In this document: positions 2,488 to 39,714 of the stretch, one piece after another
Layout of the letters: each line of letters starts with the position of its first letter
Numbering within the stretch: position 1 is the first letter of the stretch
Origin: an uncultured Desulfobacteraceae bacterium
GTDB lineage: Bacteria > Desulfobacterota > DSM-4660 > Desulfatiglandales > Desulfatiglandaceae
Direction: 5' to 3'
DNA length: 64,000 nt
NCBI GenBank assembly: GCA_964473615.1
Contig: CAYYPQ010000014.1
Coordinates: 2,229 to 66,228, forward strand
Program-made: the position numbers and the translations under genes
Notes under the pieces: generated by a model
The model's input: the letters and a program-made list of their open reading frames with translations, nothing else
The model's database searches: none
Told to the model about the DNA's origin: nothing

Positions 2488-3240
2488 TCATTTATTTTTT
2501 TTTGAGTAAAGAAAATGGACTTTACACTTGACGCCGGCAGGAATTTGATACCGCGGGTTTGCCAATTCCAGACGTACCCCGAAATTTCCACTTGCTGCGT
2601 CGATAATCTGGTCCACGATGGTCACTGTGGCGATATGCATGCCACCAACAGGTGATTCCGGACTAACCTGCGCTCGTATTCCCTTTTTTATAGTGCCAAA
2701 CCTTTCAAGGGGAACAATTACTTCCACGTAAAGCGGATTGATACTGACAATGGTCAGGATAGAATCTGTCTCTCCCACGTATTCGCCCGGCGCATGGGAT
2801 CGCTTCAACACTATGCCCTGAATTGGACTGTGAATGGTACGCAACTCAAGGGACTCAATTGCCTCTTGAAGTTGCAACTCATTGATCTGTATTTCCGTTT
2901 CCAGTTCATCTTTATCGTGAATAGAGACCAATTGCTTTTTGTAAAGGTCTTCGTTCCTTACCGCTTTGCGCTTACCAAACTCGACACGCGCACGGGCCAG
3001 GTCTACTGCCGCTTTCTCCACTCCCGCTCTCAGTCGAGCGACTACCTGGTCCTTTTTGACTATATCACCCCTCTCAACCATGATCTCTTCCAAGATGCCA
3101 GGGACTTGACTGCTGAGTTCAACTACCTCGCTCGGCTCCAGTATGCCGTCGAGATCATTATGCTCAGCTGCTTGGACGGCTATAAGTGAGTAAAATAGGG
3201 CCAGCAAAGACAAGATAAAAACCCGTAATACCGATACCAT
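2488..3240 (-). CDS. Short HlyD/RND-type periplasmic adaptor (membrane fusion protein)
   Basis: 250 aa with an N-terminal anchor or signal (VFILSLLALFYSLIAVQA). It has lipoyl/barrel-sandwich motifs (VPGILEEIMVERGDIVKKDQVVARL ... IHSPIQGIVLKR) around a short coiled coil. Confidence 0.8.
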   Translation of the reverse strand: MVSVLRVFILSLLALFYSLIAVQAAEHNDLDGILEPSEVVELSSQVPGILEEIMVERGDIVKKDQVVARLRAGVEKAAVDLARARVEFGKRKAVRNEDLYKKQLVSIHDKDELETEIQINELQLQEAIESLELRTIHSPIQGIVLKRSHAPGEYVGETDSILTIVSINPLYVEVIVPLERFGTIKKGIRAQVSPESPVGGMHIATVTIVDQIIDAASGNFGVRLELANPRYQIPAGVKCKVHFLYSKKNK

Positions 3241-3252
3241 AAAGATTTCCTC

Positions 3253-5364
3253 CTATTCGGAACGTCCTGAAAAAGAGAGCATATCTCCTTTATGTTTATC
3301 TATTTTCACCAGTTCGCGGCGCATTCGGGCATGGATACGTTCCATCTTTTTTTGGGCACGGCGAACAGCTAATTTTCCCACTGGGTTTCCCACAGCCAAG
3401 CCAAGTCGCATCAGCCCTAGTGCAAACCATCCAAGGAGACCGGCCCTCCCGCCTTCCAACAAGGGGTCCTCAAGAGAAAGAATTGCCTGGTGAGAGCCGG
3501 GATCTCCCAGCCGGCCGCAGCGGCCGGCCAATTGACGGTCTATACGGCCCGCCTCGTGGCGCTCTGTCAATATGACATGAAGGCCGCCCTTTTCCACAAC
3601 GCCGGGGCCCAGTTTGATATCCGTGCCCCTTCCCGCCATGTTGGTTGCGATCGTAACAGATCGCTCCTCCCCGGCCCGGCCTATGACCGATGCCTCTTCC
3701 TTATCCTGCTTGGCATTCAGGACCTGGTGAGGGATCTTTATTTCGTGGAGTAGACGGCTCATATGTTCCGAGGCGGCAACTGATCGCGTGCCCACCAGCA
3801 CAGGGCGGCCCTTTTCGTTCAGGCGCTGGATTTCCCTCACCACGGCGCGCCATTTGTCATCTGTCGCTCGAAAAATCTTGTCTGAATAACCGATGCGCCT
3901 CAGGGGACGGTGCGTGGGAATCCGGACCACAGGAAGGCCATAAACCGACCAGACTTCACGCCTGACCTCTCTTGCAGTTCCTGTCATGCCAGAGAGCCTC
4001 ATGTAGCGCCTGAAAAAACGCTGGTAGCTCATCTGGGCCAGGGTCTGCATTTCGCTGGTTACCTTACATCCTTCCTTGACCTCAATCAGCTGGTGTAAGC
4101 CTCGCTCCCACGAGCGATCAGGCATCACCCTCCCGGTGAATTCATCAACAATCTGCACCTTATCATCACTGAGCAGATAATGCACGTCCATATGGAAAAG
4201 TTTCTGAGCGGACAGGGCCTTTCTGGCGATTTCTTCCCGTCTGATTGTACCTTTCCACAAGGGCCCCAATGACTTGGAAAGATCGAATATCTTTTTCTTA
4301 CCCCCATCGGTCAATTCAACGTTGCGAGAAGCCATATCAATTCTGTAATCAATCCTATCCTGAAGGCCTTTTACTAACTCCATGGCCTCTTCTAGAAAAC
4401 GCTGCTCCTGCCCGGCATCCCCTGACTTTTTGGATATAAGGAGCGGCGTGCGTGCCTCGTCAATCAATACACTATCCGCTTCGTCAACGATGGCGAAATG
4501 GAGGCCGCGTAGGAGAAGATTCCGCACACGGGCGTTCGTGCCATAAAGATATTCGCTCTGTATCCGTAAGGGGTGCTCGCGATCCTTGAGCTGGATCCTA
4601 TCTCGGAGATAATCAAAGGCGATTTCCTTATTCGTACAATAGGTGATGTCACATCCATATGCGACGCGCCTGTCTTCTGGAAGGACATCATGGGTAACGT
4701 ACCCGACTGTAAGCCCTAATGCCTTGTAGATTGGCCCCATTGACTCGGCATCGCGAGCAGTTAGGTAGTCATTAACCGTTATCACATGGACAGGCATTCC
4801 CGAAAGCGCAGCAGTTCCAGCAGCCAGGGTGGCGGCCAGTGTCTTTCCTTCCCCGGTCTCCATCTCTGCTATCATCCCTTTTAGTAGGGCCCATCCTCCC
4901 ATAACCTGGGTATCAAAATGACGCTGTCCAACGGTCCTTTCCGCTAGTTCGCGAATGAGAGCGAAGGTCTGTGCGACCAATTGCGTTCGAAGCCCTTCCC
5001 TGAGAAGTTGAATGCGCAGGCCTTCAGCCAGACCCTTAATCGCCTCATTGTTCATGTCGCCCAGGGCAGCACCGAAATGGGCTACGCGAGGAACAATGCT
5101 TCTTACCCTTGCGAGGCCGGAGAGCAATGGACGTACCATCCCCCCTGCTAAAGCCCGCACGGTATCGTCTAGTGCGCTGGAGCGAGGGGGCTTTCGCTCA
5201 GGGTGTAGCTCATGGGTAGCTGGAGGATAAATAGATAATGCGGGACGCATGGGTTTTATTCGTTTTATGGGTTTATTCAGAATTTGATATTGCTCAGCCA
5301 CTCTTCGAAGGTAAGTTACACGTTGAATCTTCTGAGCAAGACTCTCCGAATGGCCCGATACCAC
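3253..5364 (-). CDS. SecA-like ATPase paralogue (DEAD motor plus preprotein-binding domain, C-terminal wing/scaffold/tail missing)
   Basis: Near-canonical SecA motifs are present: MIAEMETGEGKTLAATLAA..VHVITVNDYLTARDAE (Walker A region), IVDEADSVLIDEARTPLLIS (DEAD box), LSGMTGTA, TIATNMAGRGTDIKLG and GGLHVILTERHEAGRIDRQLAGRCGRLGDPG. The protein ends about 85 aa after GDPG, giving 703 aa against roughly 900 for housekeeping SecA. It also has an N-terminal extension of about 60 aa. The GTG start at 5364 overlaps the upstream gene by 49 nt; an ATG at 5250 is an alternative start. Confidence 0.85.
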   Translation of the reverse strand: MVSGHSESLAQKIQRVTYLRRVAEQYQILNKPIKRIKPMRPALSIYPPATHELHPERKPPRSSALDDTVRALAGGMVRPLLSGLARVRSIVPRVAHFGAALGDMNNEAIKGLAEGLRIQLLREGLRTQLVAQTFALIRELAERTVGQRHFDTQVMGGWALLKGMIAEMETGEGKTLAATLAAGTAALSGMPVHVITVNDYLTARDAESMGPIYKALGLTVGYVTHDVLPEDRRVAYGCDITYCTNKEIAFDYLRDRIQLKDREHPLRIQSEYLYGTNARVRNLLLRGLHFAIVDEADSVLIDEARTPLLISKKSGDAGQEQRFLEEAMELVKGLQDRIDYRIDMASRNVELTDGGKKKIFDLSKSLGPLWKGTIRREEIARKALSAQKLFHMDVHYLLSDDKVQIVDEFTGRVMPDRSWERGLHQLIEVKEGCKVTSEMQTLAQMSYQRFFRRYMRLSGMTGTAREVRREVWSVYGLPVVRIPTHRPLRRIGYSDKIFRATDDKWRAVVREIQRLNEKGRPVLVGTRSVAASEHMSRLLHEIKIPHQVLNAKQDKEEASVIGRAGEERSVTIATNMAGRGTDIKLGPGVVEKGGLHVILTERHEAGRIDRQLAGRCGRLGDPGSHQAILSLEDPLLEGGRAGLLGWFALGLMRLGLAVGNPVGKLAVRRAQKKMERIHARMRRELVKIDKHKGDMLSFSGRSE

Positions 5365-7460
5365 CGGCTGGCTAGTGGCTCAGGATCATGTTGGAACCGG
5401 ACGAAAACCCTCTCCCCGATCCTGTGTAGTTTTACACCATCCAGGGCTATCTCGAAATGAAAAACCTTTTCAAAGGCCTTGGGCTCCCTTGATTCGAGAG
5501 GGTCTAGTGCAATAGTCCCTCCACCCTTAGTGCTAAGGGCCAGGCTCGGCAGGTCCTTTGATGCCTCTGGCACCTCCCTCACCACTGAGGCCCTGATGGG
5601 GTCGGCAATGTCTTCAGCAAGTCTCGCCTCGACCTTTCGCGTATTATTACGCACCCTATCCACATCCGATTGGGGGACCACAACGCGAACCTTTACCTGC
5701 GAGAAGTCCACCACATAACCCAGGGGGGTCCCACGCCGCAAAAAACGGTGGGGAAGGTTTTGTGCATCGGGCAGGATGAAAATGCCATCAAGAGGGCTCC
5801 TGATAAGTAATTCCTTCTGGCGTTCACGTGCCTGTTCTAACTCTCCTTTGATTCTCTCAATTTCGTCATTGAGTATATCGGCCTCGGTCAGGTCTGTATT
5901 CTGCTTTTCCCTGTGTCTGGCCTCATATTCTCTCAACTGCGATTCCAATACTGTCACTCTCAGGGACAGCTCACGATTTTCGGAAAGCACCAATGGCTCT
6001 CCCTCATGAACCATGCGACCGGATTGGGCCATGATTTGGGTCACAAAACCGTCAGCACCGGCATGAAGCCTGGCATCCTCAGGGGCCCACACCACACCCT
6101 CGGCAGTAGTAAAGGAGGGGACCGGCGCTCTAAAGACCACCGCTGCCAGCGCGCCCATTACCACCATAGCAGTAAAGATGACGCGGCCCCGTTTTTTTTT
6201 CATGTCCGGGTCCGAAAACAGGGTTCGAATCGCCCTGCCAAGGGGAAATACAAGCATGCTAAAAGCGGCCCAGGCCGCAAGCAACAGACCCAGGACGAAG
6301 AATTTCCCGGCAACAAAAAATGCGATTCTCACACTGATATATATGCGGTAGGCGAAGGAGGCAATGGCGAAAAAGCCAAGCCATCCTCTCTCCCCTGGCT
6401 CTGAGGCAGGAGACTCGGCATCTGACACCCCGAAAAGATAGCGCCTCAGGAGATAGCCGATATAGCGATTGCTGCGCGAGGCAAGATTGGGGATTTCCAG
6501 GTAATCTGATAAGATATAATGGCCATCATAGCGCAGGAGGGGATTTCCGTTAAACAACAGAGTGGAGATGCCTGCGATCAACATGACGTTGAAGCAGACT
6601 GTCCGTATGGCGCCTGGTTCAACGTTCACCCAGACGAGCATCGCCAGAGCGGCCAGGAAAAGTTCTACCATTATCCCGGCGGCATCCACCGTCATGCGTT
6701 TACGCTTGTCAAAAAAAGCGGATGAGGCTGACGCATCCACGTAAGGGATGGGCATCAAGACCAGCAACATGATGCCCATTTCATGCACCTCGCCTCCCCA
6801 GCGCTTTACAGAATAGGCATGACCAAATTCGTGGAAGGCCTTAACAAAAGGATAGACCAATCCCAGCACCATCAGGTTTTCAACCGCCAGAACACGATCT
6901 GCTAAATTGGATGAGAGGTCCTGCCAGTGTAAAACGGCGAGTACACAGGCCGCGATCAGCAAACTGACCCATAATAAAATTCCCATCCATCCCAGAAGGG
7001 GGCGGACCAGAAACAGGGACCTTTCCAGGAAACGATCCGGGTCCAAGAGCGGGAATCGGGCAGCCATGGGAGACAACAGGTTCCTCATCCATCGGCCTTT
7101 CCGCACCCTTGCCTCGCGCACCCTGAGTTCCTCGATATCCGGGGGGATATCCGCCTGCAGAACGCCGGTCTGATGGAGCTGGGAAAGAAGTCCGATCACC
7201 TCATCCTGGGTGGGCATATCGTCACCCAGCCTATCGCAGGCGGTCTCCCATATTTCACCCATCGACCGCCGGCCGTTCATGAGACCTATGATGAGATATG
7301 CCTCTGGGGAAAACCTGTGGAACTGTCCCGTCGAATGATCCTGTAAAACAAACCATTCCTTTTGGCGAAATACCTGGCGGTGGATTTGCGCGTGGCCCCG
7401 CAGCCGCGGCCTCATTCCTTCCACCCTGTACCAGACACGGCTGAATAAAGATTTCTCCAT
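5316..7460 (-). CDS. Fusion protein: PqqD/RRE-like N-terminal domain, M50 (site-2-protease family) polytopic metalloprotease, and HlyD-like periplasmic domain
   Basis: 714 aa. HEFGH lies at residues 210-214 (nt 6819-6833) and the second M50 motif is FNGNPLLRYDGHY, with multiple TM helices. The C-terminal half has a coiled coil (LRVTVLESQLREYEARHREKQNTDLTEADILNDEIERIKGELEQARERQK) plus a barrel-sandwich motif (IRSPLDGIFILP). N-terminal residues about 30-100 (FVLQDHSTGQFHRFSPEAYLIIGLMNGRRSMGEIWETACDRLGDDMPTQDEVIGLLSQLHQTGVL) resemble PqqD-type peptide-binding domains. Confidence 0.8.
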   Translation of the reverse strand: MEKSLFSRVWYRVEGMRPRLRGHAQIHRQVFRQKEWFVLQDHSTGQFHRFSPEAYLIIGLMNGRRSMGEIWETACDRLGDDMPTQDEVIGLLSQLHQTGVLQADIPPDIEELRVREARVRKGRWMRNLLSPMAARFPLLDPDRFLERSLFLVRPLLGWMGILLWVSLLIAACVLAVLHWQDLSSNLADRVLAVENLMVLGLVYPFVKAFHEFGHAYSVKRWGGEVHEMGIMLLVLMPIPYVDASASSAFFDKRKRMTVDAAGIMVELFLAALAMLVWVNVEPGAIRTVCFNVMLIAGISTLLFNGNPLLRYDGHYILSDYLEIPNLASRSNRYIGYLLRRYLFGVSDAESPASEPGERGWLGFFAIASFAYRIYISVRIAFFVAGKFFVLGLLLAAWAAFSMLVFPLGRAIRTLFSDPDMKKKRGRVIFTAMVVMGALAAVVFRAPVPSFTTAEGVVWAPEDARLHAGADGFVTQIMAQSGRMVHEGEPLVLSENRELSLRVTVLESQLREYEARHREKQNTDLTEADILNDEIERIKGELEQARERQKELLIRSPLDGIFILPDAQNLPHRFLRRGTPLGYVVDFSQVKVRVVVPQSDVDRVRNNTRKVEARLAEDIADPIRASVVREVPEASKDLPSLALSTKGGGTIALDPLESREPKAFEKVFHFEIALDGVKLHRIGERVFVRFQHDPEPLASRWYRAIRRVLLRRFNV

Positions 7461-7471
7461 CCAAAATTACC

Positions 7472-9358
7472 TTAAGGCCACCAGGACCATGCCTTTAGTC
7501 TGAGCCATTCGGTCAGATTTCTGGTCCAGATGAAGATGAGTTTGCGGCGGTCTACATAAATTTTGCCGACACCTTCCATGCCAGGGCGAAGACGTTCGGA
7601 CACGGACTTCAGGTGGGCCTCAACACGGAAGTAGTTTCGGCCTTCCCGTGCGGTAGATATGGGAGTGATCTTTTCGACCAAGAAGTCGTAGTGATCATTA
7701 GGAAGGGACGACAAGACCAGACTGCCCTGCTGGCCTGTACGTACGTCCGCAATTCGGCGCTCATCGACCTGTACTATGACGCGATATGCATCTAACGGCG
7801 CTAGCTCAAAAAGTACATCACCTTTCTCCACCAGGCCCCCGAGCATTTGGCTGAGATCACCGCTGGCCACAATACCATTAAAGGGTGCCAGGATACGTGT
7901 CCGTTTTAGCTGGCTTTCCACCAGACTGAGCTGAGCGTTGGTCTGGTCAAGCTGTGCCTTGATTATGTTGACATCAGCCCACTTGTGCTTTGCCAGTACC
8001 TCCTGATGCTGTCGACGAAGCTGTCTTCGCTGGCTCAGCCACTTAAGCCTTTGTAGCCTCAGATCACGATCGTCCAAGACACACAGGAGCATATGTTTTT
8101 TTACTAGGTCCCCGGCACGAACATGGGCCTCTTTTATGTAACCATTAAATGGCGCAACCACAACACGGCGTACCGCCGCTTCAAGAGTGGTGTCGGCAGA
8201 TAGCCAATACTTCCCTGTCGCAACGCTAAAAAAAACAATAATGCCTGCCAGGAGCAAGACGATTAACTTTCTGCCAAGGTATTGCAGGCCAAAGAGCCTT
8301 TCCACCTGTGCCTTGAGGGAATCAAGAATTTTGCCTATCAGAAGGCGATCATTTAGGCGCTTGTTCTCCAATGCGGGGGCCACCAGCCCTGCCACGCTGC
8401 GGCAGAATTCAACATCACCGTCGTCAAAAGGCTGATCCTCCGGGCGCTCTAAGGTCAAGGCGCCGTAATAGGTGTTGTTTCCATACAAAGGCAGCGTCAA
8501 GATAGAGCCGGAGCCATGTTGTTTTGCCAGAAATTCGTGGTCTCGGGTAACGATGATTTCGGCATCTGGCGGGGCAGGATGCCGGATTTCCTGTCGCTGA
8601 AACCTGGCTTCGTCCATTGCTCTTTCAATAGAGCGGATCAGATTCATGCGCTTTCCAAACTGAGCACTGTGTGAAACCGTTTTCACACGGATACGATTTC
8701 TGCGTACAAAACCCAGGCTCACGCGGTCGCAATGGAGATGTGTCGCCATTTCAGTTACAAAGGTTATGCTGGCACCCCTAAAATGATCCTCTGCCAGCAC
8801 GGCTGCCAGCATATCAACTGCAGCTTTGAGACCCCCGAGGGCCGTTTCACTCTCTTCCTTTTTACTCTTGCAGAAGAAAAGTTCCAACCATGATTCACCC
8901 CATTGCAATTTATCCATGGCAGATTTCAACTGGGCTTCCTCATCCGTGGCTACTTCAAGGGCAACTACGCCACATAATTCTTCATTGATCAGGATGGGAT
9001 ACGCTAAACCGTAACGAGGCGGGTAAGAGGTATCCATGCCAGGAGGCATGGCCAATTCCACAAGCAGACCACAACGCTCAGCCAGTACTCGTTCCGAGAT
9101 TTCCGCCAGACGCTCAACATCCACCCCTTCTTGGGGCCATTTGGCAACAGGTACGAAGGAATTTGTTTTCAGGTTACCAATTATGAGCACACCCTGAATC
9201 ACCTTGGAGACACGTGAACACTGCAAAGCAAGCCAGCTATGGAAATACTCGTCCCGGCTGCCTGCTCCAGTGAAGCGGGCCCACAACAAAGCGAGGTTTT
9301 CCTCGGAACTGTCTTTAGCCTTTATGGTCTTATTTATGCTCAAGGATCTCAGCACCAA
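7472..9358 (-). CDS. GAF-domain, TM, HlyD-family membrane fusion protein
   Basis: 628 aa. The cytoplasmic N-terminal half is GAF-like (..CGVVALEV..., ..YGALTLERPEDQPFDDGDVEF..). There is a single TM (LIVLLLAGIIVFFSVATG). The HlyD part has a lipoyl motif (APFNGYIKEAHVRAGDLVKKHMLLCVLDD), a long coiled coil and APFNGIVASGDL. The start is TTG in the ORF track, and the gene ends 11 nt before the next gene. Confidence 0.8.
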   Translation of the reverse strand: MVLRSLSINKTIKAKDSSEENLALLWARFTGAGSRDEYFHSWLALQCSRVSKVIQGVLIIGNLKTNSFVPVAKWPQEGVDVERLAEISERVLAERCGLLVELAMPPGMDTSYPPRYGLAYPILINEELCGVVALEVATDEEAQLKSAMDKLQWGESWLELFFCKSKKEESETALGGLKAAVDMLAAVLAEDHFRGASITFVTEMATHLHCDRVSLGFVRRNRIRVKTVSHSAQFGKRMNLIRSIERAMDEARFQRQEIRHPAPPDAEIIVTRDHEFLAKQHGSGSILTLPLYGNNTYYGALTLERPEDQPFDDGDVEFCRSVAGLVAPALENKRLNDRLLIGKILDSLKAQVERLFGLQYLGRKLIVLLLAGIIVFFSVATGKYWLSADTTLEAAVRRVVVAPFNGYIKEAHVRAGDLVKKHMLLCVLDDRDLRLQRLKWLSQRRQLRRQHQEVLAKHKWADVNIIKAQLDQTNAQLSLVESQLKRTRILAPFNGIVASGDLSQMLGGLVEKGDVLFELAPLDAYRVIVQVDERRIADVRTGQQGSLVLSSLPNDHYDFLVEKITPISTAREGRNYFRVEAHLKSVSERLRPGMEGVGKIYVDRRKLIFIWTRNLTEWLRLKAWSWWP

Positions 9359-9445: not shown

Positions 9446-9805
9446 CTAGGCCTTGGTCCCTGGCGGTTTTTCGCCTGACTCGATACGAAGTTCACCGAAG
9501 CGGGACTCATATTCGCGGAGGATATTGTTGAGTAATAGGGATAGGCGCTTGGCCGCATAGGGGTTCAGAATAACGCGATCGCTCAATTCAACGGTCAGCG
9601 CCTCCTGACTGGTATGCCAGCTTTGGTTGGTACCAAAAAGTAAGGTGACTTCTTCCCTAGTGCTGGATACGTTAACCACGTTGGCATAGGTGCTCTTCAT
9701 CTTGGAGCCATCCCAACGTATTACCGGCCTTGAACTTTTAGCATCCTGTTCAGCCTCATTTTTTGCCTCATTCTTTTCCTTGTTATCTCCGGGTGTCTGC
9801 GCCAT
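9446..9805 (-). CDS. DUF3467-like small protein
   Basis: YANVVNVSSTREEVTLLFG...RVILNPYAAKRLSLLLNNILREYESRFG matches my memory of the DUF3467 pattern. The ATG at 9805 is preceded by a perfect AGGAGG 7 nt upstream (ataggaggacaaactATG). It overlaps the last 23 nt of the giant ORF. The track start at 9823 is less likely. Confidence 0.65.
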   Translation of the reverse strand: MAQTPGDNKEKNEAKNEAEQDAKSSRPVIRWDGSKMKSTYANVVNVSSTREEVTLLFGTNQSWHTSQEALTVELSDRVILNPYAAKRLSLLLNNILREYESRFGELRIESGEKPPGTKA

Positions 9806-12800
9806 AGTTTGTCCTCCTATCATTAAAGTTTAAAAAGGGGAAGCCGATAAATGGCAAATCACCGGTTTGGGATCCGGATCTGCTAGAGTGTCCACCTTCC
9901 TTCAACTGGCCGTTATGCCAGCGTAGGAAGCGCCGTTTATCTTCTTCAAGGTTTAACCTCTGGAATGCCTCTCGATTCAAAATCATCTTGTCATCGCTAC
10001 GCCGCGAAGAGACCGCACTCCATCCCATAAATCCGGCAACCATGGCCCCTAATCCGAGGTCCTCACGAGGCTTGCCCTGGTCTGAAGGATCGTGTCGATG
10101 GGATTCTAATTGCCCGGCGGGTATTTTTAACACCTGATCAGGATAGATGACATCCGGATCAGTTATTTCCGGGTTGGCTTCCCAAATCTTCCGCCATAAA
10201 AGGGGATCACCAAATTTTTCTCTTGAGATGTCCCATAGGGTATCACCTTTCTCGACCTTGTATTCTTTATATTGGATCCCTTTGGTGTAGCTTTCAGGTT
10301 CAGTGTAGCCCTCAGGCTTGGCAGCGGCCTCCGTAAGATATGAACCGGGATGGGAGGGGATCTGGGGTAGGCCAGCCCCGCGTGTGCCAGCCACAAAGGG
10401 CTGTATGCCAGCGCCTTTAGCGGGCAGGATGCCGCCGATAAAGGCAAGCCCCGGCGTCTGCCACCCTGGTATAAAGGGTGATCTGTATAGGGAGAAGAGA
10501 GTATTGGCGATGGTGTCAAGGTTGTACTGTCCGAGTCGGACAACGCTTACGACCTTGCCGCCTTCAATGATAGCGCGGGCATAATCACCGATAATGAAAT
10601 CATCAGTCAGATTGCCCACAAAGACATCATTGCCGAAACCACCAAACATGATGTCGTTATTGGTTCCTCCATCAAGAAAATCGTTACCACCGATGAAGGG
10701 GTCAATAGTTTCGATTACGCTCGGTGTGCCGTTGCTCAGGGTCACCTTGCCGCCGTCGCCCAGAATGATATCGTCACCGGCGCCGCCTGCGACAGTGTCG
10801 TCCTTTGCACCGGCTATGATGATATCATTGCCGGATCCACTAGCTATAACGTCATTGCCGCCCACGTTTGCATCAACGGTAAATACTGTGCCTAGTTCGC
10901 GGATGATTCCATCGGTCTTATCGCCGGGGCCACCGCCCCCGAGGACCGTGACCTCCTGAAGATTCTCATTAAGATAATGGACTCGGCCGCGATCGCCGAA
11001 GATAATGTCGTCTCCGCTGCCTCCAGAAATGGTGTCGTTTCCTTTGCCACCAAAGATGATCAGTGGCAGGCTCGATGAGGAGGCGTCTACAGAGTCATTG
11101 TCGCTCACTGGGTCTAGGGAATCGTCAGGGCCCTGCAGGTTGAGCACAAAGAATCCATCGGTTCCGGCGTCGAGAGAGACGTTGCCACGGTCATCACCAA
11201 GACCTGTATTCAAGGTGGTGATGGTACGGACACCATCTCGCTTGTGGGTACTGGCAACCGTAAAGGTGTCTTCCCCGTAGCCGCTCCACAAGGTGATCCC
11301 TCCGGCAAAGTTACCGTTGGTCAGGTCTGTTTTATAGGTGATATCTGCCGGCGCCAATCCCTGGATCATGGCCTTCGTAATCAAAATGTCGCTATCGCCT
11401 TGGTTGCTATCAGAATCGCTAATCATCAATAGATGCCCGCCCTGGCCAGCGTCTATGTTCAATTGGCCTAAGATATCGTCAAGATTGCCTTCAAGGAAAT
11501 CGGTGGAAGTATCGAGGTCTAAATCGGCACCCGACGATACATAGATCCTTTCATTGCCATCATGTAAATCAATGTTGGTGACGGCGGCAGTTCCCTGAAC
11601 GTTGAAGACATCGTCCCCTGAACCAAGGCTGATATTCAGTTCTTCTACGTTCTTATATTGAACACCCATTGCCATGTCAAGGCCGGTGAGCCTGGTGTTG
11701 TTGAGTACTCCAACGTTGGCATCTGTATCGCCGGTATCATCAATATTTACGATATCATCATTATCACCGCCATCAATGGTCAATAGTCCAGCGATATCAT
11801 CCACCACGCCGCCACTAAGCGGTGAAAGGCTGCCCACATTGATTGTATCACTGCCGCCTGATGTGTGAAGCGAGGTCGTACCCTCATGTGTTGCCCTGAC
11901 GTTGAAGATATCGCTGCCCGAACCAAGGTCAATATTCATCTCTTCCATGTCATGATAAACAAGACCGCCGGGATAATCCTTTCCTTTGATCGTTGTCCCT
12001 GTCGACATATTGAGACCGGTCAGTGTGCTACTGCCCAGCCAACCCTCATCGTCGGTTTCGCTATTCGTGTTGTATGCATTTAGCGTGTCATGGGAAAGTG
12101 TCTCATCCAGTTGTGCAATCAATTCATCACCGCCTAGTGACGGGTCATCTTCTCCTTCCCCTGGCATGTTAACCGGATCACCTACTGGCCGTGCCCCTTC
12201 GCCATCGCCACTGCCACCTTCAATTCTGAGCGGTCCCCTAATTGAGCCAAGGGAGTTTGTTATGGTGAAATCAACATCCTCATCTGTAACGATGATATCT
12301 TTAAGGTTGACATTGTCAGGCACACCCCCGACGTGGATGGTGTCGTTGCCGTAGTTGCCTAGCAAGACAGTGTTGACAATAGGGCTTGTTGAGAGCACAA
12401 AAATCTGGTCATCGCCAATATACGTGTCGACAATAAGGGTTTCTACATATTCATAGTTTGTGGTCAGGCCGGCGCCAAAGACACCTTTGTCAGTAACAGC
12501 AATGGCATCATCAAACTCTGTGCCGATTAATATTAACCTATCCTCTCCTTCGCCGCCGTTTATGTTCACAGGTGCATTTACCACATACTTGATGGTATCT
12601 GCTCCCTTACCACCTGTGATTGTTGTACCTGCCTGTGCGAATGATCTGACATCAAATTTGTCGTCACCGTCTTGCCCGTTTAATTGAAGTTCCTCCCGAT
12701 TGCGGTAGACCGTGATATCGTCGTCACCGTCACCGGCATTGACCGTTGTGGCAGCGCTGACGCCGTTGCTGAGAAAGCCAAGTGTTGTTTCCACTGTCTC

Positions 12801-15800
12801 CACGCCGGCAGGAGCTGATTTGAACACCTGCCCTATCTGGATCCTGTCGTTCCCCGCGCCGGCATTGATGGTCGTCTTTGCAGAGTTATCGTCGAGAACA
12901 AGGTGGTCATCTCCTTCACCGCTATTGATGATCAATTGGTTATTTATGTTTTCGTCGTACCAGACCCTCTCGAAATCAGGGTGGTATTTTGGCTTGCCTT
13001 TTGCGTCACGCCCGTCTGGCCTTAGCAGGGCCACGAAGTCTTTCCGGAATAGGAAGGTGTCGGCCACAGACGTGCCGTTGATGGTCAGGGTGTCATCACC
13101 TGTGGCACCCGTATCGAGCACCTTTAACTCCGATTTGCCCGTACCGGTCAGGTTTACGAGGTACTGGTCGCTGCCACCCCGGCCGTCAATGGTCCACACC
13201 GGCGCCGGATCAGGTCCGGTATAGATAACATCTGTCAGGGTAACAATATCATCATCACTCTCTCCATAGACCGTCACAGGACCGAATGGAATGGGGCTTT
13301 CAAAATTCATTACAGAGCCGATTCCTGGGTCTGCATTTCCGTAATCACCATAAAGCACTACCCCTGTTGCTGCTCCAATTATGCCGCCGGTTTCTATAGT
13401 GATGTCGTCACCGGCCCTCAATATCACCGATCCCGTAAGACTCCATATCGCATTCGCCTTGGTCCCGCTAACGGACAGGTCGTCTCCCGCATCACCCGAC
13501 TCTGTGACAGTCATTCGGACATCGCCGGAAATTGACGTTACCTGAAAGTTGTCCCCGATAACAAGGTCGCCATCTGCCTCGGCAAGATAGATGCCCAGGT
13601 TTGCCGTAACATCGAGGGACCAAGACGGGGAATCCTTAGAATCGAAATCCACATCATTATCGAGAGTGCCGACTCCGCCGGTCTGGGCGTTGAGATAAGT
13701 TTTTCCTCCAGAAAAAAGGTTGCTTTCTTCATTATTGATACCGTCGAAGATCGATCCCTGGGCTACCAGGTTTATATCATTCCCGGCAGAAACCGTGTCC
13801 AGATAAAGGTCTGCCACGTCCCTAAGGTAGATGTCGGTGTCGGCCCTTGCGGTGAGGGTGGCCTGTCCTTTCAGGTCAATTCTTAGCTGACTATCCTGAG
13901 TCCCTATATAACCCCCGGCATTCGTTGCATTGAGAATCAAATTGCCAGATGTGCTTATAGCTGTCGTCTCATCGGTATAGACATCCGTGATGGCCCCGCC
14001 GGCCTGCAGGCGCACATAGCCTCCTGCCACAACAGAATCAATCTTGAGATCCCCTTCTGCCTGCAGTGCGACACTATCCCCTGTCGCGACTGTAACGCTT
14101 TCAGATGCTTCAACATTTATGTCATTCCATACCTGCAGAGTCAGGGTCTCGACTTCACCGTTTTGGTCATAGGTTACATCCAAAATATCGTCCACAGTCG
14201 CCACGGTCAGTATTTCCTTCTCCTGGTCGGACAGGGTTTCAAAACCGTGGGACAGATCGATGGTAACAACATCTGTAATACGGCCTACCTGGCTATTTTC
14301 ACCTCCGGTCATCATTGTTACATGACCGCCTAGGATATTGGGTGTTTCGATTATGTCGGTTCCGTGGGCCACAGCGCCGTCTGCATCTGGATAAAGGAAG
14401 CTGAAAAGAGATCTCGAAACCGGATACCTCAGGGCACTGGTGGAAAAAGTCCGGTCCGAAATCCGGTCCTGCCGTTCCTGGTCGGATATATGGTAGATAA
14501 AGTTGGGATCGTACACTCCATCCCCATAGGTATCGTGTACCTTTTGATAGCGCTCGTCCAAGGGGACGTCTTGCTGAAGGTCCCCGTAACTATAGCCGTA
14601 CTCCAGCAAACTGGTATAATTGAAATGTACGTCCCCTTCGATGGTAATATCCATGACCTTTGGGGTCTTGCTGATTGCGGCGTCATATCTGGAAAGGGCG
14701 AGTTGAATTGTTGTATCATTCTTCACAACAACATAGTAAGCAAGATTGTTTTCGAGATTTGACTGGGGCTTGCTGACACTCTCACCCTGGTAACTGTAAA
14801 GCGTACCGTCATGAGTCCTGACCAACTGGTTTGTCTCGAGCATAACGCGTGTTCCCACAGCGAGCTTATCAAGGGCATAATCAGGAGCGATCTCGGCCCA
14901 TCTGGCTGCATTTTTATAGTCCTCAGCGGCCAGATCTACATTATCAGTGTGCTCACCCAGGTAGCTGTGCAGGATACCATCGACCGTTCTGACAATCTGA
15001 TCTGTTTCAAGGCTGACCGTACCCGAAAGATTTCCAAGGTCATAATCGGGAACGATCCCGGCCCATCTGTTGGTATCGCCATAGTTCTCCTTGCTCAGGT
15101 CGATTCCCACGCTGAAGAAGACCTGGTCACCGGTCTCAAGCCCGTGAGGCTGGCTGAAGCTGATTTCATCTTTGACTGCGTCAATGTTCTTAATCGCTAT
15201 TTCACCAGCCACATAACTCGGCCTGGCGTCGCGGTACGCTTGCCAGTAACTGTGGTAGAGCTGGGTTTGGGCCCCTTCTTCAAGCTGAATAGCTTTTTCC
15301 GCTTCATCGATAGCCCCCTGTCCTGTCAGTTGCTGTTCCTTGTCGAGCTTGTCGGCTTCTTGTTGTGTGCGAGGTCTGAATTCTTCATAGAAGGCATCGA
15401 GTATTGAACCATCGTCAACTCGCAGATAAACGTCCCCCTGCTCGGAATGAATGGATGCATCAAAACCGTCAAAATCACCCCCCCAGGTCTGCGGCTGGGC
15501 GGGCTTTAAATCTCCCTCTATCTCACGTATGTATATGTCTCCATGGGCCCTGGCTGCCACACCACCGGAGCCAAGAACATCGCTATCCACCCGCAAGTAC
15601 GAATCGGCACTTCCGATTTGGCCTCCTATGGCATAGAGCTCGATCTGGTTGCCGCGGATGAAGGAGGACTGGTCAAATGCCTGAATACCGTCACCGGCAT
15701 GTAAAACAACATTGCCGCCCGTTGAGATGATCTGGCCAACAATAATCGTGCTGCTTTGATTTCCATCTGGATCAAATACAACCCGGATATCGATATCCCC

Positions 15801-18800
15801 CTCAGAAGTGATGGACAATACTTGTGGAACTTGTGGGTCTCCCTGGACACTCATGGCCGCCAAGGGGGAAAGCGGTTTAGATGTCTTCCCGCCCTCGACA
15901 TTCGCCCGCACTGAGCCACCGGCATTGATGGTCGGGCTCACACCCAATACAGCCGCCGTTTCTCCGAAGATGACATCCCCACCCGAAGTCAGGGTAATAC
16001 TTCCTTCCTTAGGACTGGTGATGGTTCCCTGGAGATGGAGATCGTTCAAGGTGTCAATGTTAATCGAAGGGGCCGCCGGGGCCTGGATAAACGAAATCCC
16101 AATGGGGTAGTCCGCCTCCAGCGTATGGGTATAATAATCCTTCTCGCCGAAGGTTTGGGTTACCACGGTATGGGCCGTCTTTGTCCTGAGCCAGCCGCCG
16201 CCCGTTGTCCAACGCTGCACATCGTAGGTATAATTTTGAAAGCTACTATCATATGTGATATCCGCATCCGTCGTTGTCGCGCTTACATCGGTCCATTTCT
16301 GCGTATCTGAGTAATCCTGGTCACGCAGCACGAGTTGCGCATTCTGACCTATATACAGGTAACGGTTCCCGACCACACCACCTTGGGCAAGTCTTACCCC
16401 GTTTTCATCAACGACCACCTTGATAATGTCAATGTTCTGGATCAGTTGCACATCCGTGTCATCTTTCATTTCGTATTGAATCGTATATGCCTTACCATCA
16501 GCATAACCCAGGACCTCAACCTGAGAGACCCATTTGCTGGAATCCGTGTAGTCCGCTGTCCCTAAATCAAAATTGTCCGCATCGGCGCCTTGATAGAGGT
16601 AAAGCGTGCCGTCCACATCCTTGACAATCTGCCCGGTATGGAGATCAACCAGAGTACCTGAAGGAAGCGTGTTTGCGTCATAATCCGGCTTTACAGTCAG
16701 GACTTCAGACTCGAGAAGCGGATATTCATCTCGGAAATTGGTCACCTGCGACTTGTAGCTCTGATCTTTTACGGCACCATCCCAATCAAAACCAATCAGA
16801 TTGAAGCTCTTCTTCTCATAGGTTGTGACCAAAACCCTCGTCTTCTCCTGCCCCTCCGTCCACAGGTATTGCAGTCCTTCACGCGGTTGGTACTCCATGG
16901 TGTCATTTTGATCGTAATAGTGGGAATCCACCTCTTCATAAACAATGCTTGAGATCACGCTATCGCTATCGCTTAGATCGCCTCCACCGGGCGTCCCCTG
17001 GTATAACGTCTCCTTGATCTGGCCCAGGTCATCATCGAACTCATACTCCACCTTTTGAAATTTGCCCGTATCGATGATCGTGATCTTCCCCTCTCTCTTT
17101 TTGGTTGTGTCTATCCTGTTGACAACCAGCTCATAGGGGCTGTCGTTCTGGATGTCGACATTGGTATAACCGTGAGCCACCCTGAGCATACCGTTTCCCG
17201 TGCTCAGGATCTCACCTGCCAAAATAATTCTGCCGCCTTGCGGAACAATCTCATTAACCACAATGGCCTGTTTCTGCGCATCAAAATAGCCGTCCACAGG
17301 CACCCTGTCAGTACCAAAGCTGATCCCTTGAAGCGGGTTCCCATCATCATCAAGAAATAAAGTAGTGCCGGAAGGGGCAAAATCCTGACCCACGTGGAGG
17401 GTTATGGTCTGAACGCCACTCTGGATCAGCCCATTGACATCCAGGTACCGGGCCGTTATGGCAACCCGGCCCTGGGCAAGGATTGAGGAGCTCCACGGGT
17501 CGATAGAGTCAATGAAGGGGTTATTGTCATAGGTTTTGGTGGTCAGGTTTCCGGCCTTATTGAAGACCTGGCCGCGATAGTTGTCGAGGCCCGGGTATTG
17601 CCGGGGGTCCATGTTGTGGAACCAATCGTCCGTGTTGAGATTGAAGTCCTTGGCGGCCCTGATTTCCACGTTTTCGGCCCTGATTTCCCCTGACACATTG
17701 ATGCTGCCCTCATTATTAATAATAGATACATCCCCGACTTCGTTGATAACGTCTCCTACAATGTAGAGGTCCTGGGGCAGGCCTTCAGGAATTGCCAGGT
17801 CAATATTGTAATCAGTCCCCTTTCGGCTTATGGAATCCTGGGTAATGGTGATGGCCTTGTCCGGAGGATCTTGAATGGAGGTTATCCCTTTGTAGTTGAA
17901 ATACACATTGCCCGGAGTAAGGACTGTATATTCTCCATCAACGACAGTGACTCGTCGTGTATCTCGAATCACCGTATCATATACTGTCAGCGAAAACGGT
18001 GTCTCATTGGCGACATTTATCTTTGCACCTGCCCTTGCAACGAGTTGGTTGTCCACCAGGGGCACAAAGGCATCACGATAGTTCGCATCTGCCTTAATAT
18101 AGATCGAACCGGGAGCGGCGTAAATATCGGGTAGCTCAACGAACAAGACATCCAATCCTTTATTGGCGACCTGGGCAGGTTGCCCGGTATCCGGGTCAAT
18201 AATGCTGTCCAGCAGTCCCAATTCCGACAGGCTTTCTTCGACCAGGGCAAGCTGGATTTCATAGCGGGCGACGGCCTCCGGGTTACTCGAGTGGTTTGCA
18301 ATCCAGTCCAGGATCTTATCACGCTGTGCAAGGAGGACGCTCCCGACATTCTGGAGCGACAGTGTGGGGGCATCAACCCTGGTAGGTTTGACGACATAAA
18401 ATTTGTTTTTAAGGGCTCCCTTCAAGGAAATGGTCACATCGCTCATGTAGATGGTGGGCGCCATCTCACCCCATGTTGCAATATCGCTAAAATCTTCGCT
18501 GTTCAAATCTATATTATTAGCGCCCTGATCCGGCAGATACTTGTATAACGTGTCTTCAGTCGTTCTCACGATCTGCCCCTTCTGAAGGGCGACCGTCGTC
18601 CCAGGAGCAAGCGTATGTAAGTCATAATCAACGGTAATTTTTTCCCACCTGCTGGTATCGCTGTAATCCTCCTTATCCAACACTATCAGGTCCGGCTTAT
18701 CGATCTCGGGCTTGTATCTATACAATGCGCCAAGCTCTCCACCCCCGGCCACAGGGTTTCCATTCCCGTCATCCGCCACCTGGATGACCGTTCCCGTGTA

Positions 18801-21800
18801 GACATTGAAGGCGATCTCATCTGCATTGAGTGCGCAGTATTCATATTTCACGTCTGTCACAAAGTCGCTGACATAAGTGACGTCTCCGTCCTTTGTTGAG
18901 GAGGTTACATCTGACCATTTCTCGGTGTCGGAGTAATCTTGCTCGGAAAGAACGAGCTGTCCGGGCTTACCTATGTATGCATACCGGTGCTCGGCGATAC
19001 CGCCTTGATTGGCCCCAGCGGCCACTCGAATGATGTCTTTGTCGCCGATGCTGACAAATGAAATGCCCTCCCTGAGTTTCTCGGCGTTGGTGAGCAGTCT
19101 GTCGGCAGGCGACATGTCCAGCCTGGACGGGTCAATGTTTTGCACACCCTTCAAGGTGACTGGCTTGATCAGCATGACCGCCTGATTGTTGATACCGGCT
19201 CCAATGTGTGCCTGATCGCCGATCACCACCTGGTTGTTGCTGGTCACATTCCCGTACCCTGGGATGGGGAATCCATAGGGGATCAGTGACAATGAAAGCG
19301 CGGTTCCCTCCGTCTCTCTCTTATCCATTCCCCTATCAGCCACCAGATTGACATCTTCCATTGCTCGAATCGATGAACCGCCGAGGACATTGACACTGTT
19401 TGTTTCCTTAATGTCGGCCGTGGGAATTGGAACAGCAATATTGGGGAACATGGACATGGCCGTGAGTTCTGTGCCGGCGACACTCATGATCACGTCGGGC
19501 ACCTCAGTGCTGTTCCTGCCCGCGTACAAGTAAATATCGCTGCCGTTTACGGTGGTGTTGTTGATATTGATCATATTGGTGGCATTGGTGTTGCCGGTGG
19601 CCTCGGCCCCCGCGCCTCCGGTCAGGGCCGTTGCAACAAGCAGGTTTGCACTGGGATTAATGCTCGAGTCGGTCTTGGCAGTCAAATAGACGTCCCCTGC
19701 CTTACTTTCCAGGACAGCCCCATCTACGTTGATGGCAGCCAGTGTGTTTGAATTCACCCTGGAGATGCCCGTGGAGACACCAAACCCGGACACGCTTTCT
19801 ATCCTGACACTGTCTACGGCAAAGATGTCATTGAGCGTCTCAATCTTGAAGATGCCCGGAGACCGATTGTCGCCATCCACCGTCAGCCGGGCCCCGGTCC
19901 CGATGTTGACGGCGGACTCAAAGGGAAGATACTGGCTGCCGATGTCGGTTTCGCTCTTGAGAACCGTGACGTTTACGCCACTTGCAGAGCCCGATCTCAG
20001 GTTGCTGCTGTCCTTAAAATCATCCTTGGTCAATTGATTCTTGGCGTTGATGACAATGTTTTTGGCAGTGACACTGGCACCGTTGCCTATATCCACATTC
20101 GCTTTGCTGGTGATGCTGTTATCCACGCCCGCACCGCTTCCGGCCGCCGCCGCAAAGGCATAACTGTCGGCAGATGCATCGATGTCCTGTACGTGCGTGG
20201 AATTTATAGAAAGTCCATCGACTTGAATTTGTGCGCCCGCCCCGATTCGTGCCAGGGTTGCATTATTGCTGGTGACTTTCGACTCGGCACCGGCCGCGGC
20301 AACGGCCCCGCCACCGCCGGCCGTGCTCTCGGAAAGGAGATCATCCGTGCTGCTGGCAGTAATCCTGAGGGTCCTGGCCTGAATACTTGTCCCAGTGCCC
20401 ACCGCCGCCTCAACCTCATACACATCATAGCCCCTGCCGAGGTTTACGTCCGAGACCATGGCCCCCACGGCAATGGCACCGAAGGCACCCCCTTTTGCAT
20501 TTGTGTTTGCAATGTTGTTTGCCGTTGCCTTGATAGTGATATCCCCGCTTGAAATCAGTGTCGCGTTCACAGCAGACGCCTTCACCAGGGTCTTGATGTC
20601 TGCGTTGGCTTCATTTCCCTGCGCTCCTAGTATGGCCGAGCCTGACACCCCTGCGGATATGGTCTTGGCCACATTCGCGACAGAATCGGCGTGGATCAGC
20701 GTATTGTTTGAGGTAACAGTCGCCTCATTGATCCAGGCCTCAATATTGCTTCCAATCTCGTTATTGACAAGGGCAACACCTAGGCCCGCCCCCAGGCTCG
20801 CGCTGATCGAGACAGCAGTGGCGTCCCCTATTATGTAAGCATCTTCACTGGCCAGGACATTGACGTCCCCGTCTGCGGTCAGGTCTATGGGGCCATCCAC
20901 GTGAGCGGCCACATTGTTCATGATCGTGTTGTCGATATCAATGCCACCACCACTCAGGCCCACGACGCCTACCGTCACGGAGGCCGTGGTGGCGCTGACA
21001 TCACTCATGCTGGCACGAGCCACATCCGCCAGAATCGAGATGTTACCCCCGGCGTCAAGGCTCGTTTTGATTTGTTTCCACAGGTTTGTATCGGAGTAGT
21101 CCTGCGTGGTCAGGTCAACGGGGCCCGACAGGGCGGTTGCCCCAACATATTCATAGATGTCTCCATTATCCCGCTTGACCCTCTCGCCTTGGGAAACAGC
21201 GTTCGGCTGTTCTATCATCGTGTAATCATAGGGGCTGCTGACATACGCCTCAACATCATTGCTGATTGTGTTATCCACCGTGGATACTGCAACAGATGCG
21301 GCCCCAAGGCTTCCCGCCACGGCAACGCCGATGGCCTGGGATTTTGCCACGTGACTGTCTGAGACCGCGCTTATTTCTATTTCATCCACTGCCGTGGCCT
21401 CGGCATCCACCATGTAGGCATAGACGCCGCTTGCCAGGCTATTGGTCACATCGGCACCGCAGCCCGCAAGCGCGCCGCCGGGACCGGCCGCAATGGCGAC
21501 GGAGCCCGAAAAGGAGACCGCGTCCACGGTGTCTGTGGCCATGGCGAGCATCCGGATATCATCTGCTGAGGAAAGGGTTGCATCCTCCGCATAGGCCACG
21601 ACCTGGTTGAGGACCGTGTTTTTGAGGATAGCGACCCCGATGGCCCCTGAGGCGGCCACACTCCCTCCGCTCACCGCCGCGGCCACCCCGCCGACCAAGG
21701 CGTCGATGGTGGACGAGCTAAGAGCATCGATCGTTATATCGTCGGCAATCCGTTTCCAACGGGTAGTATCCGTAAAATCCTCTGTGCTCAGGTCAACCGG

Positions 21801-38063: not shown

Positions 38064-39714
<1,651 letters not shown>

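Follow-up and report, generated by a model that had tools for sequence, protein, structure and literature searches.

The stretch of DNA analysed here (the window) comprises 64,000 nucleotides of contig CAYYPQ010000014.1 from an uncultured Desulfobacteraceae bacterium. Its minus strand carries an operon with intergenic gaps of 11–93 nt, which encodes, in order, a TolC-family outer-membrane channel, a giant protein, a DUF3467 protein, a GAF-domain membrane fusion protein (MFP), the 714-residue protein that is the subject of this work, a SecA-like ATPase, a small MFP and a peptidyl-prolyl isomerase (PPIase)-like protein (Table 1). The 714-residue protein is the sole polytopic membrane protein of the operon. 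We are highly confident that it unites three parts in one chain: a recognition element for peptides that are made by ribosomes and modified after translation (RiPP recognition element, RRE) of the leader-binding type, an intramembrane M50 protease (site-2 protease, S2P) and a periplasmic MFP domain. Family profiles, motifs, AlphaFold2 models and Foldseek searches agree on this assignment, which an earlier reading of the stretch without database searches (the sequence-only reading) had also reached. Beyond that reading, the protein turns out to be one of three MFPs in the operon, which also encodes a SecA-like ATPase of truncated form and a DUF3467 protein.

The long start of the gene at position 7460 is correct, since residues 5–13, which precede an internal methionine (Met16), are kept in the alignment of homologues. 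More than 7,600 homologues of the RRE-M50-MFP protein were found, mostly about 714 residues in length, and in a scan of one genome per species at least 599 species carry it. The full-length AlphaFold2 model has a predicted local distance difference test score (pLDDT) of 81.4, and the Foldseek list obtained with it is dominated by MFP matches; the N-terminal domain was also modelled and searched as a separate fragment.

The model of residues 1–115 (pLDDT 86.9) consists of three strands (residues 24–31, 34–41 and 46–50) followed by three helices (52–59, 67–81 and 85–97). A sequence-profile search of this domain against the PDB was uninformative, returning only a chance match to non-ribosomal peptide synthetases/polyketide synthases (E = 2.2), and a fold search was therefore needed. 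Foldseek placed TfuB1 (6jx3), TbiB1 (5v1u/5v1v) and PqqD (5sxy) as the best matches in the PDB; 6jx3 and 5v1u/5v1v are lasso-peptide B1 proteins with the leader peptide bound. The top five matches have a probability of 1.00 and target-normalised TM-scores of 0.71–0.77, and the recognition domains of LynD, CteB, ThcOx and MibB appear lower in the list. The PqqD/RRE assignment of the sequence-only reading, which rested on residue spacing and a hydrophobic/glycine pattern, is thus borne out by a winged-helix fold and by RRE/PqqD proteins at the top of the fold search. The likeness of this domain to RRE/PqqD proteins exceeds chance. The Pfam PqqD profile (PF05402; cut-off 23.4 bits) scores 16.9 bits on the whole protein (residues 38–101, E = 0.008) and 20.8 bits on the excised domain (E = 5e-4), and matches 23 of 24 homologous N-terminal domains at E ≤ 0.1, with a best E-value of 3.5e-6.

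The best-conserved parts of the domain are strand 3 (H48, R49, S51) and helix 3 (Q85, E87, I89, L91, L92, H96), whose listed residues are invariant or nearly so. In solved RRE–leader complexes, strand 3 and helix 3 line the peptide-binding groove. When 1.8 billion representative proteins were searched exhaustively, the domain turned up in 1,252 clusters. Among the best 150 matches, the full-length ones are about 715 residues long with the domain at the N-terminus, so this type of RRE seems specific to the RRE-M50-MFP architecture; many of the others are shorter and probably fragments.

The curated family nearest to the protein is NF041824, that of the daptide biosynthesis intramembrane metalloprotease, which aligns residues 18–404 of the protein with positions 1–365 of the 379-position model (E = 2e-44), a span that takes in the N-terminal domain. 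NF058609 (the YydH/LiaK epipeptide protease) matches only the core (residues 161–327, E = 6e-9). The Pfam Peptidase_M50 profile (PF02163) reaches 14.3 bits against a gathering score of 27.2, which leaves the protein outside that family by score, and a precomputed match to it is present in many homologues. The sequence-only reading had located an HEFGH motif at 6819–6833 and an NGNPLLRYDG motif; the first position is exact (encoded 6833..6819), and the second motif is present at residues 304–313. HEFGH sits within a model helix spanning residues 193–220, and Asp312 would, by analogy, be the third zinc ligand. In an alignment of 44 homologues with 54–71% identity to the target, H210, E211, H214, N304, G305, N306, P307, L308, R310 and D312 are all invariant (44/44). 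The two S2P motifs are thus undamaged and subject to selection.

The HlyD-like coiled coil and barrel-sandwich that had been proposed for the C-terminal half are supported by Pfam, by the model and by Foldseek. HlyD_3 (33.5 bits) and HlyD_D23 (30.2 bits) both score above their gathering cut-offs, and a PDB profile search matches MacA, EmrA and HlyD. The model contains a barrel-sandwich, a hairpin of two helices (496–519 and 524–549) and beta-rich domains. MacA, MexA and AcrA are the best Foldseek matches of the full-length model (E = 1e-10 to 1e-8).

To place the protein in its genomic context, homologous loci were collected from two sides. The cassette-side set holds 82 loci, and neighbour counts were limited to loci with enough flanking DNA. 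A GAF-MFP gene lies immediately upstream of the target homologue in all 70 of 70 loci (one apparent miss is an artefact of a 7-nt overlap) and a SecA-like gene immediately downstream in 68 of 71. The small MFP is found nearby in 59 of 66 loci, and DUF3467 upstream in 37 of 66 at the tblastn threshold used. According to their metagenome-assembled genome (MAG) or species labels, 80 loci fall in Desulfobacterota, Alpha-, Beta- and Gammaproteobacteria, Omnitrophota, Nitrospira, Myxococcota, Flavobacteriales and Phycisphaeraceae, with Neptuniibacter, Marinobacterium, Bradyrhizobium, Vibrio, Pseudomonas and Methylobacterium among the proteobacterial genera. A giant open reading frame (ORF) adjoins the cassette in at least 35 of 63 loci and in most cases continues past the upstream end of the locus. 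Several large ORFs near cassettes were left out of this count, as they are HrpA-like helicases or GC-rich antisense frames. All nine giant N-termini that are visible beside cassettes carry the LEPR-XLL motif (9/9; loci L010, L023, L029 from Omnitrophota, L047, L053, L057, L073, L077 and L079), as does the giant of the window.

The cargo-side set consists of 80 metagenome loci fetched via the DUF4347 motif of the giant's N-terminal region. Those with an LEPR-XLL N-terminus and at least 1.6 kb of upstream DNA number 51, and in 45 of them a window-type TolC gene and/or cassette lies directly upstream: TolC in 42 and the window-type cassette in four (one of which also has TolC), with the remaining six showing neither and none showing the second kind of cassette, described below for Pseudomonas. 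A homologue search with the N-terminal 330 residues of the giant returned mostly fragments, and the contexts of P0131, P0148, P0183 and P0195 were uninformative, their genes being split or the cassette out of range. The sequence-only reading had suggested the giant LEPR-XLL protein as a possible substrate. With synteny between cassette and giant in both directions it is the best candidate, and we consider it the probable cargo.

The N-terminus of the giant had been suggested as a possible leader, and in an alignment of 20 giant N-termini its build is leader-like. The LEPR-XLL region (residues 31–51, NF012209, above cut-off) is followed in the window's giant by DUF4347 (131–310), RTX repeats and a C-terminal LysM domain. 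Across the 20 sequences, a basic stretch leads into F-E-x-L-E-x-R-x-L-L-S-A-D, a hypervariable linker of about 50–150 residues and then DUF4347; E33, E36, R38, L40 and S42 are invariant (20/20), and none of these N-termini has a Sec-type hydrophobic core. A recognition motif with a spacer behind it is arranged in this way. The leader motif reported in the daptide paper is ELExMEAP; the "LE" that it has in common with LEPR-XLL is too short a match to be evidence. In a Thermodesulfobacteriota MAG (GCA_040757495.1; L001, 1–7550), the giant next to the cassette is called as 17,800 residues, so that cargo sizes reach well past 7,817.

The C-terminus of the window's giant (about 9783–10300, minus strand) holds the LysM domain (nt 10119–10262), an 'L-x-A-G-x-x-G-W' stretch and a basic 'RRF-x-RW..G-x-L' tail, which may serve as an envelope anchor or as a second sorting signal. 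This motif recurs beside cassettes in L001, L004, L006, L014, L015, L017, L021 and L059. Many giants beside this type of cassette lack it or have a different one, and some other giants end in '(I/V)DW(S/N)'.

A sister cassette occurs in Pseudomonas solani (L083; AP023081.1, 503466–525052). It encodes MFPs of 260 and 439 residues and an M50-MFP of 698 residues, followed by an Asp/Arg hydroxylase, sulfotransferases, an acetyltransferase, a DUF4347 protein starting 'ALEPRMMFDGA', PATR-repeat proteins and an OEP gene; no SecA-like, GAF or DUF3467 gene was found in the cassette and no ATPase gene nearby. The M50-MFP is 27% identical to the window protein, and its N-terminal domain has diverged past BLAST alignment, with a sequence pattern that looks RRE-like by eye. 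Cassettes of this second kind are also present in L143 and L160. Among six cargo-side loci with the variant LEPR..MFDGA N-terminus, two have the Pseudomonas-type cassette upstream and four have neither kind, with the window-type TolC and the window-type cassette found in none. Since LEPR..MFDGA giants adjoin the SecA-less cassette, leader variant and cassette variant appear to change together, in small numbers that include some near-duplicate loci.

Table 1. Features of the operon and of the RRE-S2P-MFP protein (positions in the window; residues refer to the protein named)
Feature	Position	Strand	Basis and remarks
RRE-S2P(M50)-MFP protein	5316..7460	−	714 aa; ORF and translation
Cytoplasmic RRE/PqqD-like winged-helix domain	7170..7391	−	Residues 24–97; model, Foldseek, Pfam PqqD in homologues, NF041824 coverage
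S2P (M50) transmembrane core	6129..7040	−	Residues ~141–444; NF041824, NF058609, weak PF02163; model helices 141–444
HEFGH zinc-binding/catalytic motif	6819..6833	−	Residues 210–214; read from sequence
NGNPLLRYDG motif	6522..6551	−	S2P NxxPxxxxDG type; translation
Periplasmic MFP domain	5319..6125	−	Residues 446–714, after anchor helix 424–444; Pfam, PDB profile, Foldseek
TolC-family outer-membrane channel	33330..34715	−	First operon gene; TIGR01844, E = 1e-99, above cut-off
Giant protein, candidate cargo	9783..33236	−	7,817 aa; ORF; NF012209, Pfam DUF4347, HemolysinCabind, LysM
LEPR-XLL motif FEALESRILLSADL	33102..33143	−	Giant residues 32–45; proposed RRE ligand; translation
Candidate RRE-ligand peptide RRKIIFEALESRILLSADLV			From the giant; motif-bearing
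DUF3467 protein	9446..9823	−	125 aa; PF11950, E = 1.7e-21; between giant and GAF-MFP
GAF-domain MFP	7472..9358	−	628 aa; Pfam GAF, HlyD_3, HlyD_D23
Truncated SecA-like ATPase	3253..5364	−	SecA_DEAD, SecA_PP_bind, P-loop_SecA
Small MFP	2488..3240	−	250 aa; TIGR01730, E = 7e-37, above cut-off
PPIase-like protein	1904–2470	−	Last gene ahead of a terminator-like hairpin

The SecA-like protein aligns only to residues 35–603 of B. subtilis SecA. The aligned part takes in the two nucleotide-binding domains, the preprotein-binding domain and the first portion of the scaffold helix; the protein has no wing domain, no two-helix finger and no C-terminal tail. The ORF as listed begins with GTG and shares 49 nt with the target gene, and the true start is probably Met39 at about 5250, because alignments of homologues begin at residues ~45–54. 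A similar truncation was described by West-Roberts et al. for SecA-like domains inside giant proteins of Omnitrophota. The papers on Omnitrophota giant genes place such domains within the giants and make no mention of the present cassette.

No ABC transporter gene was found in the operon or among the window ORFs scanned against family libraries, several smaller plus-strand ORFs not having been included in the scan. The scanned ORFs thus offer no ABC transporter as motor or channel, the hallmark of classical type I systems, and comparison with Pfam shows those of the plus strand to be housekeeping genes, for example ATP synthase, RNase Y and DNA polymerase I. The sequence-only reading had suggested that the MFP part could couple leader cleavage to TolC, and the dedicated TolC gene at the head of the operon fits that link.

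The DUF3467 protein was considered as a SecB-like chaperone, a role that found no support. A PDB profile search gave nothing meaningful, and hhalign against E. coli SecB aligned 14 columns at 0.4% probability. A second DUF3467 domain is present at L001 (16951–19017), in a 688-residue protein adjoining a radical SAM enzyme.

Scans for promoters and terminators gave background levels except for one terminator-like hairpin after the PPIase-like gene (1870–1856, minus strand). Beyond it lie genes for a HAMP-domain protein (1060–1641) and an unannotated 195-residue protein (454–1041), both on the minus strand; the two genes, which may encode a regulatory pair, are also found next to the cassette in L003 and L011. 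On the plus strand, the ATP synthase c-subunit ORF (38710–39714) encodes 334 residues with four tandem hairpins in one frame (four Pfam ATP-synt_C matches). Hairpins 1 and 4 keep the ion-binding Glu and hairpins 2 and 3 have Gln in its place, and the protein looks like a fusion with half the usual ion sites.

We propose that, in a TolC-dependent, type-I-like exporter working without an ABC transporter, the RRE-S2P-MFP protein is the subunit that recognises and processes the substrate. The proposal starts from the three-domain architecture, the intact catalytic motifs, the homology to RRE-dependent leader peptidases and the two-way linkage to LEPR-XLL giants; for the chain of events as a whole, we regard the chances as evenly balanced. 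The exporter would be made up of the GAF-MFP, the RRE-S2P-MFP, the small MFP, the truncated SecA-like ATPase, the DUF3467 protein and the dedicated TolC. The cytoplasmic RRE would capture the F-E-x-L-E-P/S-R-x-L-L-S-A-D motif of the giant as an added beta-strand, and the S2P site would remove the basic leader at or just past this motif. Known S2Ps have their active site near the cytoplasmic face of the membrane and prefer substrates of type II orientation, the orientation that a leader entering the conduit with its N-terminus inside and its C-terminus outside would adopt. The SecA-like motor may then drive the chain, N-terminus first, into a conduit in which the three MFPs would bridge to TolC, and the C-terminal LysM domain and conserved tail could remain at the envelope. 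More tentatively, and at somewhat less than an even chance, the window and its relatives would represent a distinct and widespread TolC-dependent pathway for giants of 8,000 to more than 17,000 residues, in which LEPR-XLL is read by an RRE and cut by an MFP-fused S2P, export is SecA-like-driven, N-terminus first and possibly co-translational, and a SecA-less sister serves LEPR..MFDGA giants.

Several points weigh against this proposal. Leader binding and cleavage, including the position of the cut, are steps that we infer. In about one third of the cassette loci that have 10 kb flanks, no giant ORF lies near, and because the sets contain near-duplicate loci, the counts overstate the number of independent observations. 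Both the PqqD and the Peptidase_M50 scores of the window protein lie under the Pfam gathering thresholds, and its NF041824 score of 152.2 bits is far under the 300-bit equivalog cut-off. For the N-terminal domain, Foldseek gives modest E-values (2.5e-3 to 8e-3), which a size of ~80 residues would lead one to expect, and generic winged-helix proteins occur lower in the same list. Finally, the conserved C-terminal motif of the giants could be the recognised signal instead.

A different view of the M50 domain is that it acts mainly as an inner-membrane pore or scaffold in place of an ABC transporter, as suggested by Kamneva et al. (2015; PMC4452313). The RRE would then only dock the cargo, and proteolysis would be absent or would clear jams and leftover peptides rather than remove a leader. 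That the protein is the operon's only polytopic membrane protein fits a pore, as do the lack of an ABC transporter among the scanned ORFs, a SecA-like protein without the parts that engage SecY, and the Pseudomonas-type cassette, in which three MFPs, one of them an M50-MFP, have no ATPase gene nearby. However, all catalytic residues are invariant across the family, which points to a real protease, and the nearest characterised relatives are leader peptidases. To our knowledge, the S2P structures solved so far do not form protein-conducting pores. We therefore consider this explanation unlikely, though it deserves to be kept in mind.

The RRE and protease could also act on the other end of the giant, with the C-terminal region (LysM, 'L-x-A-G-x-x-G-W', 'RRF-x-RW') serving as secretion signal or as the site of a cut that releases the giant from the envelope. 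Type I secretion substrates use C-terminal signals, the RTX repeats near the C-terminus resemble such substrates, and at least eight loci share the motif with the window. It is nevertheless missing or different in many cassette-linked giants, whereas LEPR-XLL is present at every visible N-terminus, and the homologous RRE-S2P enzymes act on N-terminal leaders. S2Ps, moreover, do not favour substrates in type I orientation, as a C-terminal anchor would be, and the hydrophobic stretch available for it is weak (17-residue Kyte-Doolittle mean of ~0.8–1.6). Taken together, these points make a C-terminal site of action improbable. Still less probable, in our estimate, is that the giant is merely adjacent and the real substrate is a small ribosomal peptide of the daptide or YydF kind, or a membrane-bound regulator subject to regulated intramembrane proteolysis. 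All characterised RRE-S2P and YydH/LiaK relatives do process small peptides, and the HAMP-domain protein just downstream, which recurs in two loci, would suit a regulatory circuit. Against this, the gaps within the operon are short, and the 647 nt upstream of TolC contain no ORF of more than 65 residues and none plausible as a precursor, the conservation of shorter ones not having been checked. Family scans of the operon genes found neither RiPP-modifying enzymes nor anti-sigma factors, and the linkage of cassette and giant holds across phyla and in both directions.

The question addressed by the proposed exporter is how proteins of 8,000–18,000 residues leave the cell without a classical type I ABC transporter. 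The module with the secondary SecA has been without an assigned cargo or role since its description in 2015 (PMC4452313). An RRE on the protease subunit, the two-way linkage to LEPR-XLL and a sister cassette with its own leader variant together yield a testable model that names a signal, a receptor, a protease and a motor. If the model is true, RRE-based leader recognition would reach beyond small natural-product peptides to bacterial proteins of the largest size, by an export route apart from the numbered secretion systems. It would also explain the LEPR-XLL motif and the giant surface proteins of the DUF4347 type, in at least 599 genome-representative species.

The closest described arrangement is the module of Kamneva, Poudel and Ward (2015; PMC4452313), which consists of GAF-HlyD, Peptidase_M50-HlyD, a secondary SecA_DEAD protein, HlyD/biotin-lipoyl and sometimes OEP. 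The window belongs to this module: all of its members are present and adjacent there, and the order is the same in 68–70 of ~70 loci. In that work the module was thought of as type-I-like, SecA being its ATPase and the M50 protein possibly a pore, not a leader peptidase; the authors called the role "completely unknown" and reported no PqqD/RRE, leader, cargo or DUF3467. Literature searches on LEPR-XLL, DUF3467, DUF4347, PqqD+M50+HlyD and daptide+M50 found nothing functional for the present system, nor any report of an RRE on this module or of its link to giant LEPR-XLL proteins.

Among characterised enzymes, MpaP of the daptide pathway is the nearest counterpart. The daptide paper describes it as an "RRE-dependent intramembrane peptidase" that removes the N-terminal leader, with the RRE fused N-terminally to a site-2 protease. 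In both proteins, an RRE at the N-terminus precedes the M50/S2P core with its HExxH. The window protein differs in its additional 270-residue periplasmic MFP domain, in its Gram-negative, TolC-bearing host and in a candidate substrate of ~8,000–18,000 residues, compared with ~30. None of the daptide neighbours (precursor, DUF-RRE, decarboxylase, aminotransferase and methyltransferase; MpaB/C/D/M) is present in the operon, so the protein is homologous to MpaP and yet no daptide enzyme. The sequence-only reading had called a leader logic on so large a substrate unusual; this holds for the MFP fusion and the giant substrate, but not for the pairing of RRE and protease, which daptides had already provided. 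YydH/LiaK (NF058609), RseP and SpoIVFB share the M50 core with HExxH and NxxPxxxxDG. None of them has an MFP domain, and RseP and SpoIVFB work with PDZ or CBS domains in place of the RRE.

Among secretion systems, peptidase-containing ABC exporters such as colicin V CvaAB-TolC recognise and cut an N-terminal leader with a protease domain of their own. Leader cutting by an exporter-borne protease and the route through MFP and TolC would be common to both. The colicin V-type exporters use a cytoplasmic C39 cysteine peptidase, a double-glycine leader and an ABC transporter as motor and channel, whereas the present system has an intramembrane metalloprotease with an RRE and a SecA-like ATPase, and no ABC transporter among the scanned ORFs. 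In the LapA/LapBCE system with LapG/LapD, giant RTX adhesins are secreted by a type I route and proteolysis in the N-terminal region controls their fate. The giant, repetitive RTX cargo and the MFP and TolC route are alike. In Lap systems, an ABC transporter exports the cargo C-terminus first on a C-terminal signal, and the protease is a periplasmic cysteine protease; here, by contrast, the conserved motif is N-terminal, the protease is a membrane metalloprotease and the scanned ORFs include no ABC transporter. The four-gene module (PMC4452313) and the RRE-S2P fusions of daptides are thus already known. What appears to be new is the RRE on the module, the LEPR-XLL/DUF4347 giants as its cargo, DUF3467 and a dedicated TolC as regular members, and a SecA-less sister cassette with its own leader variant.

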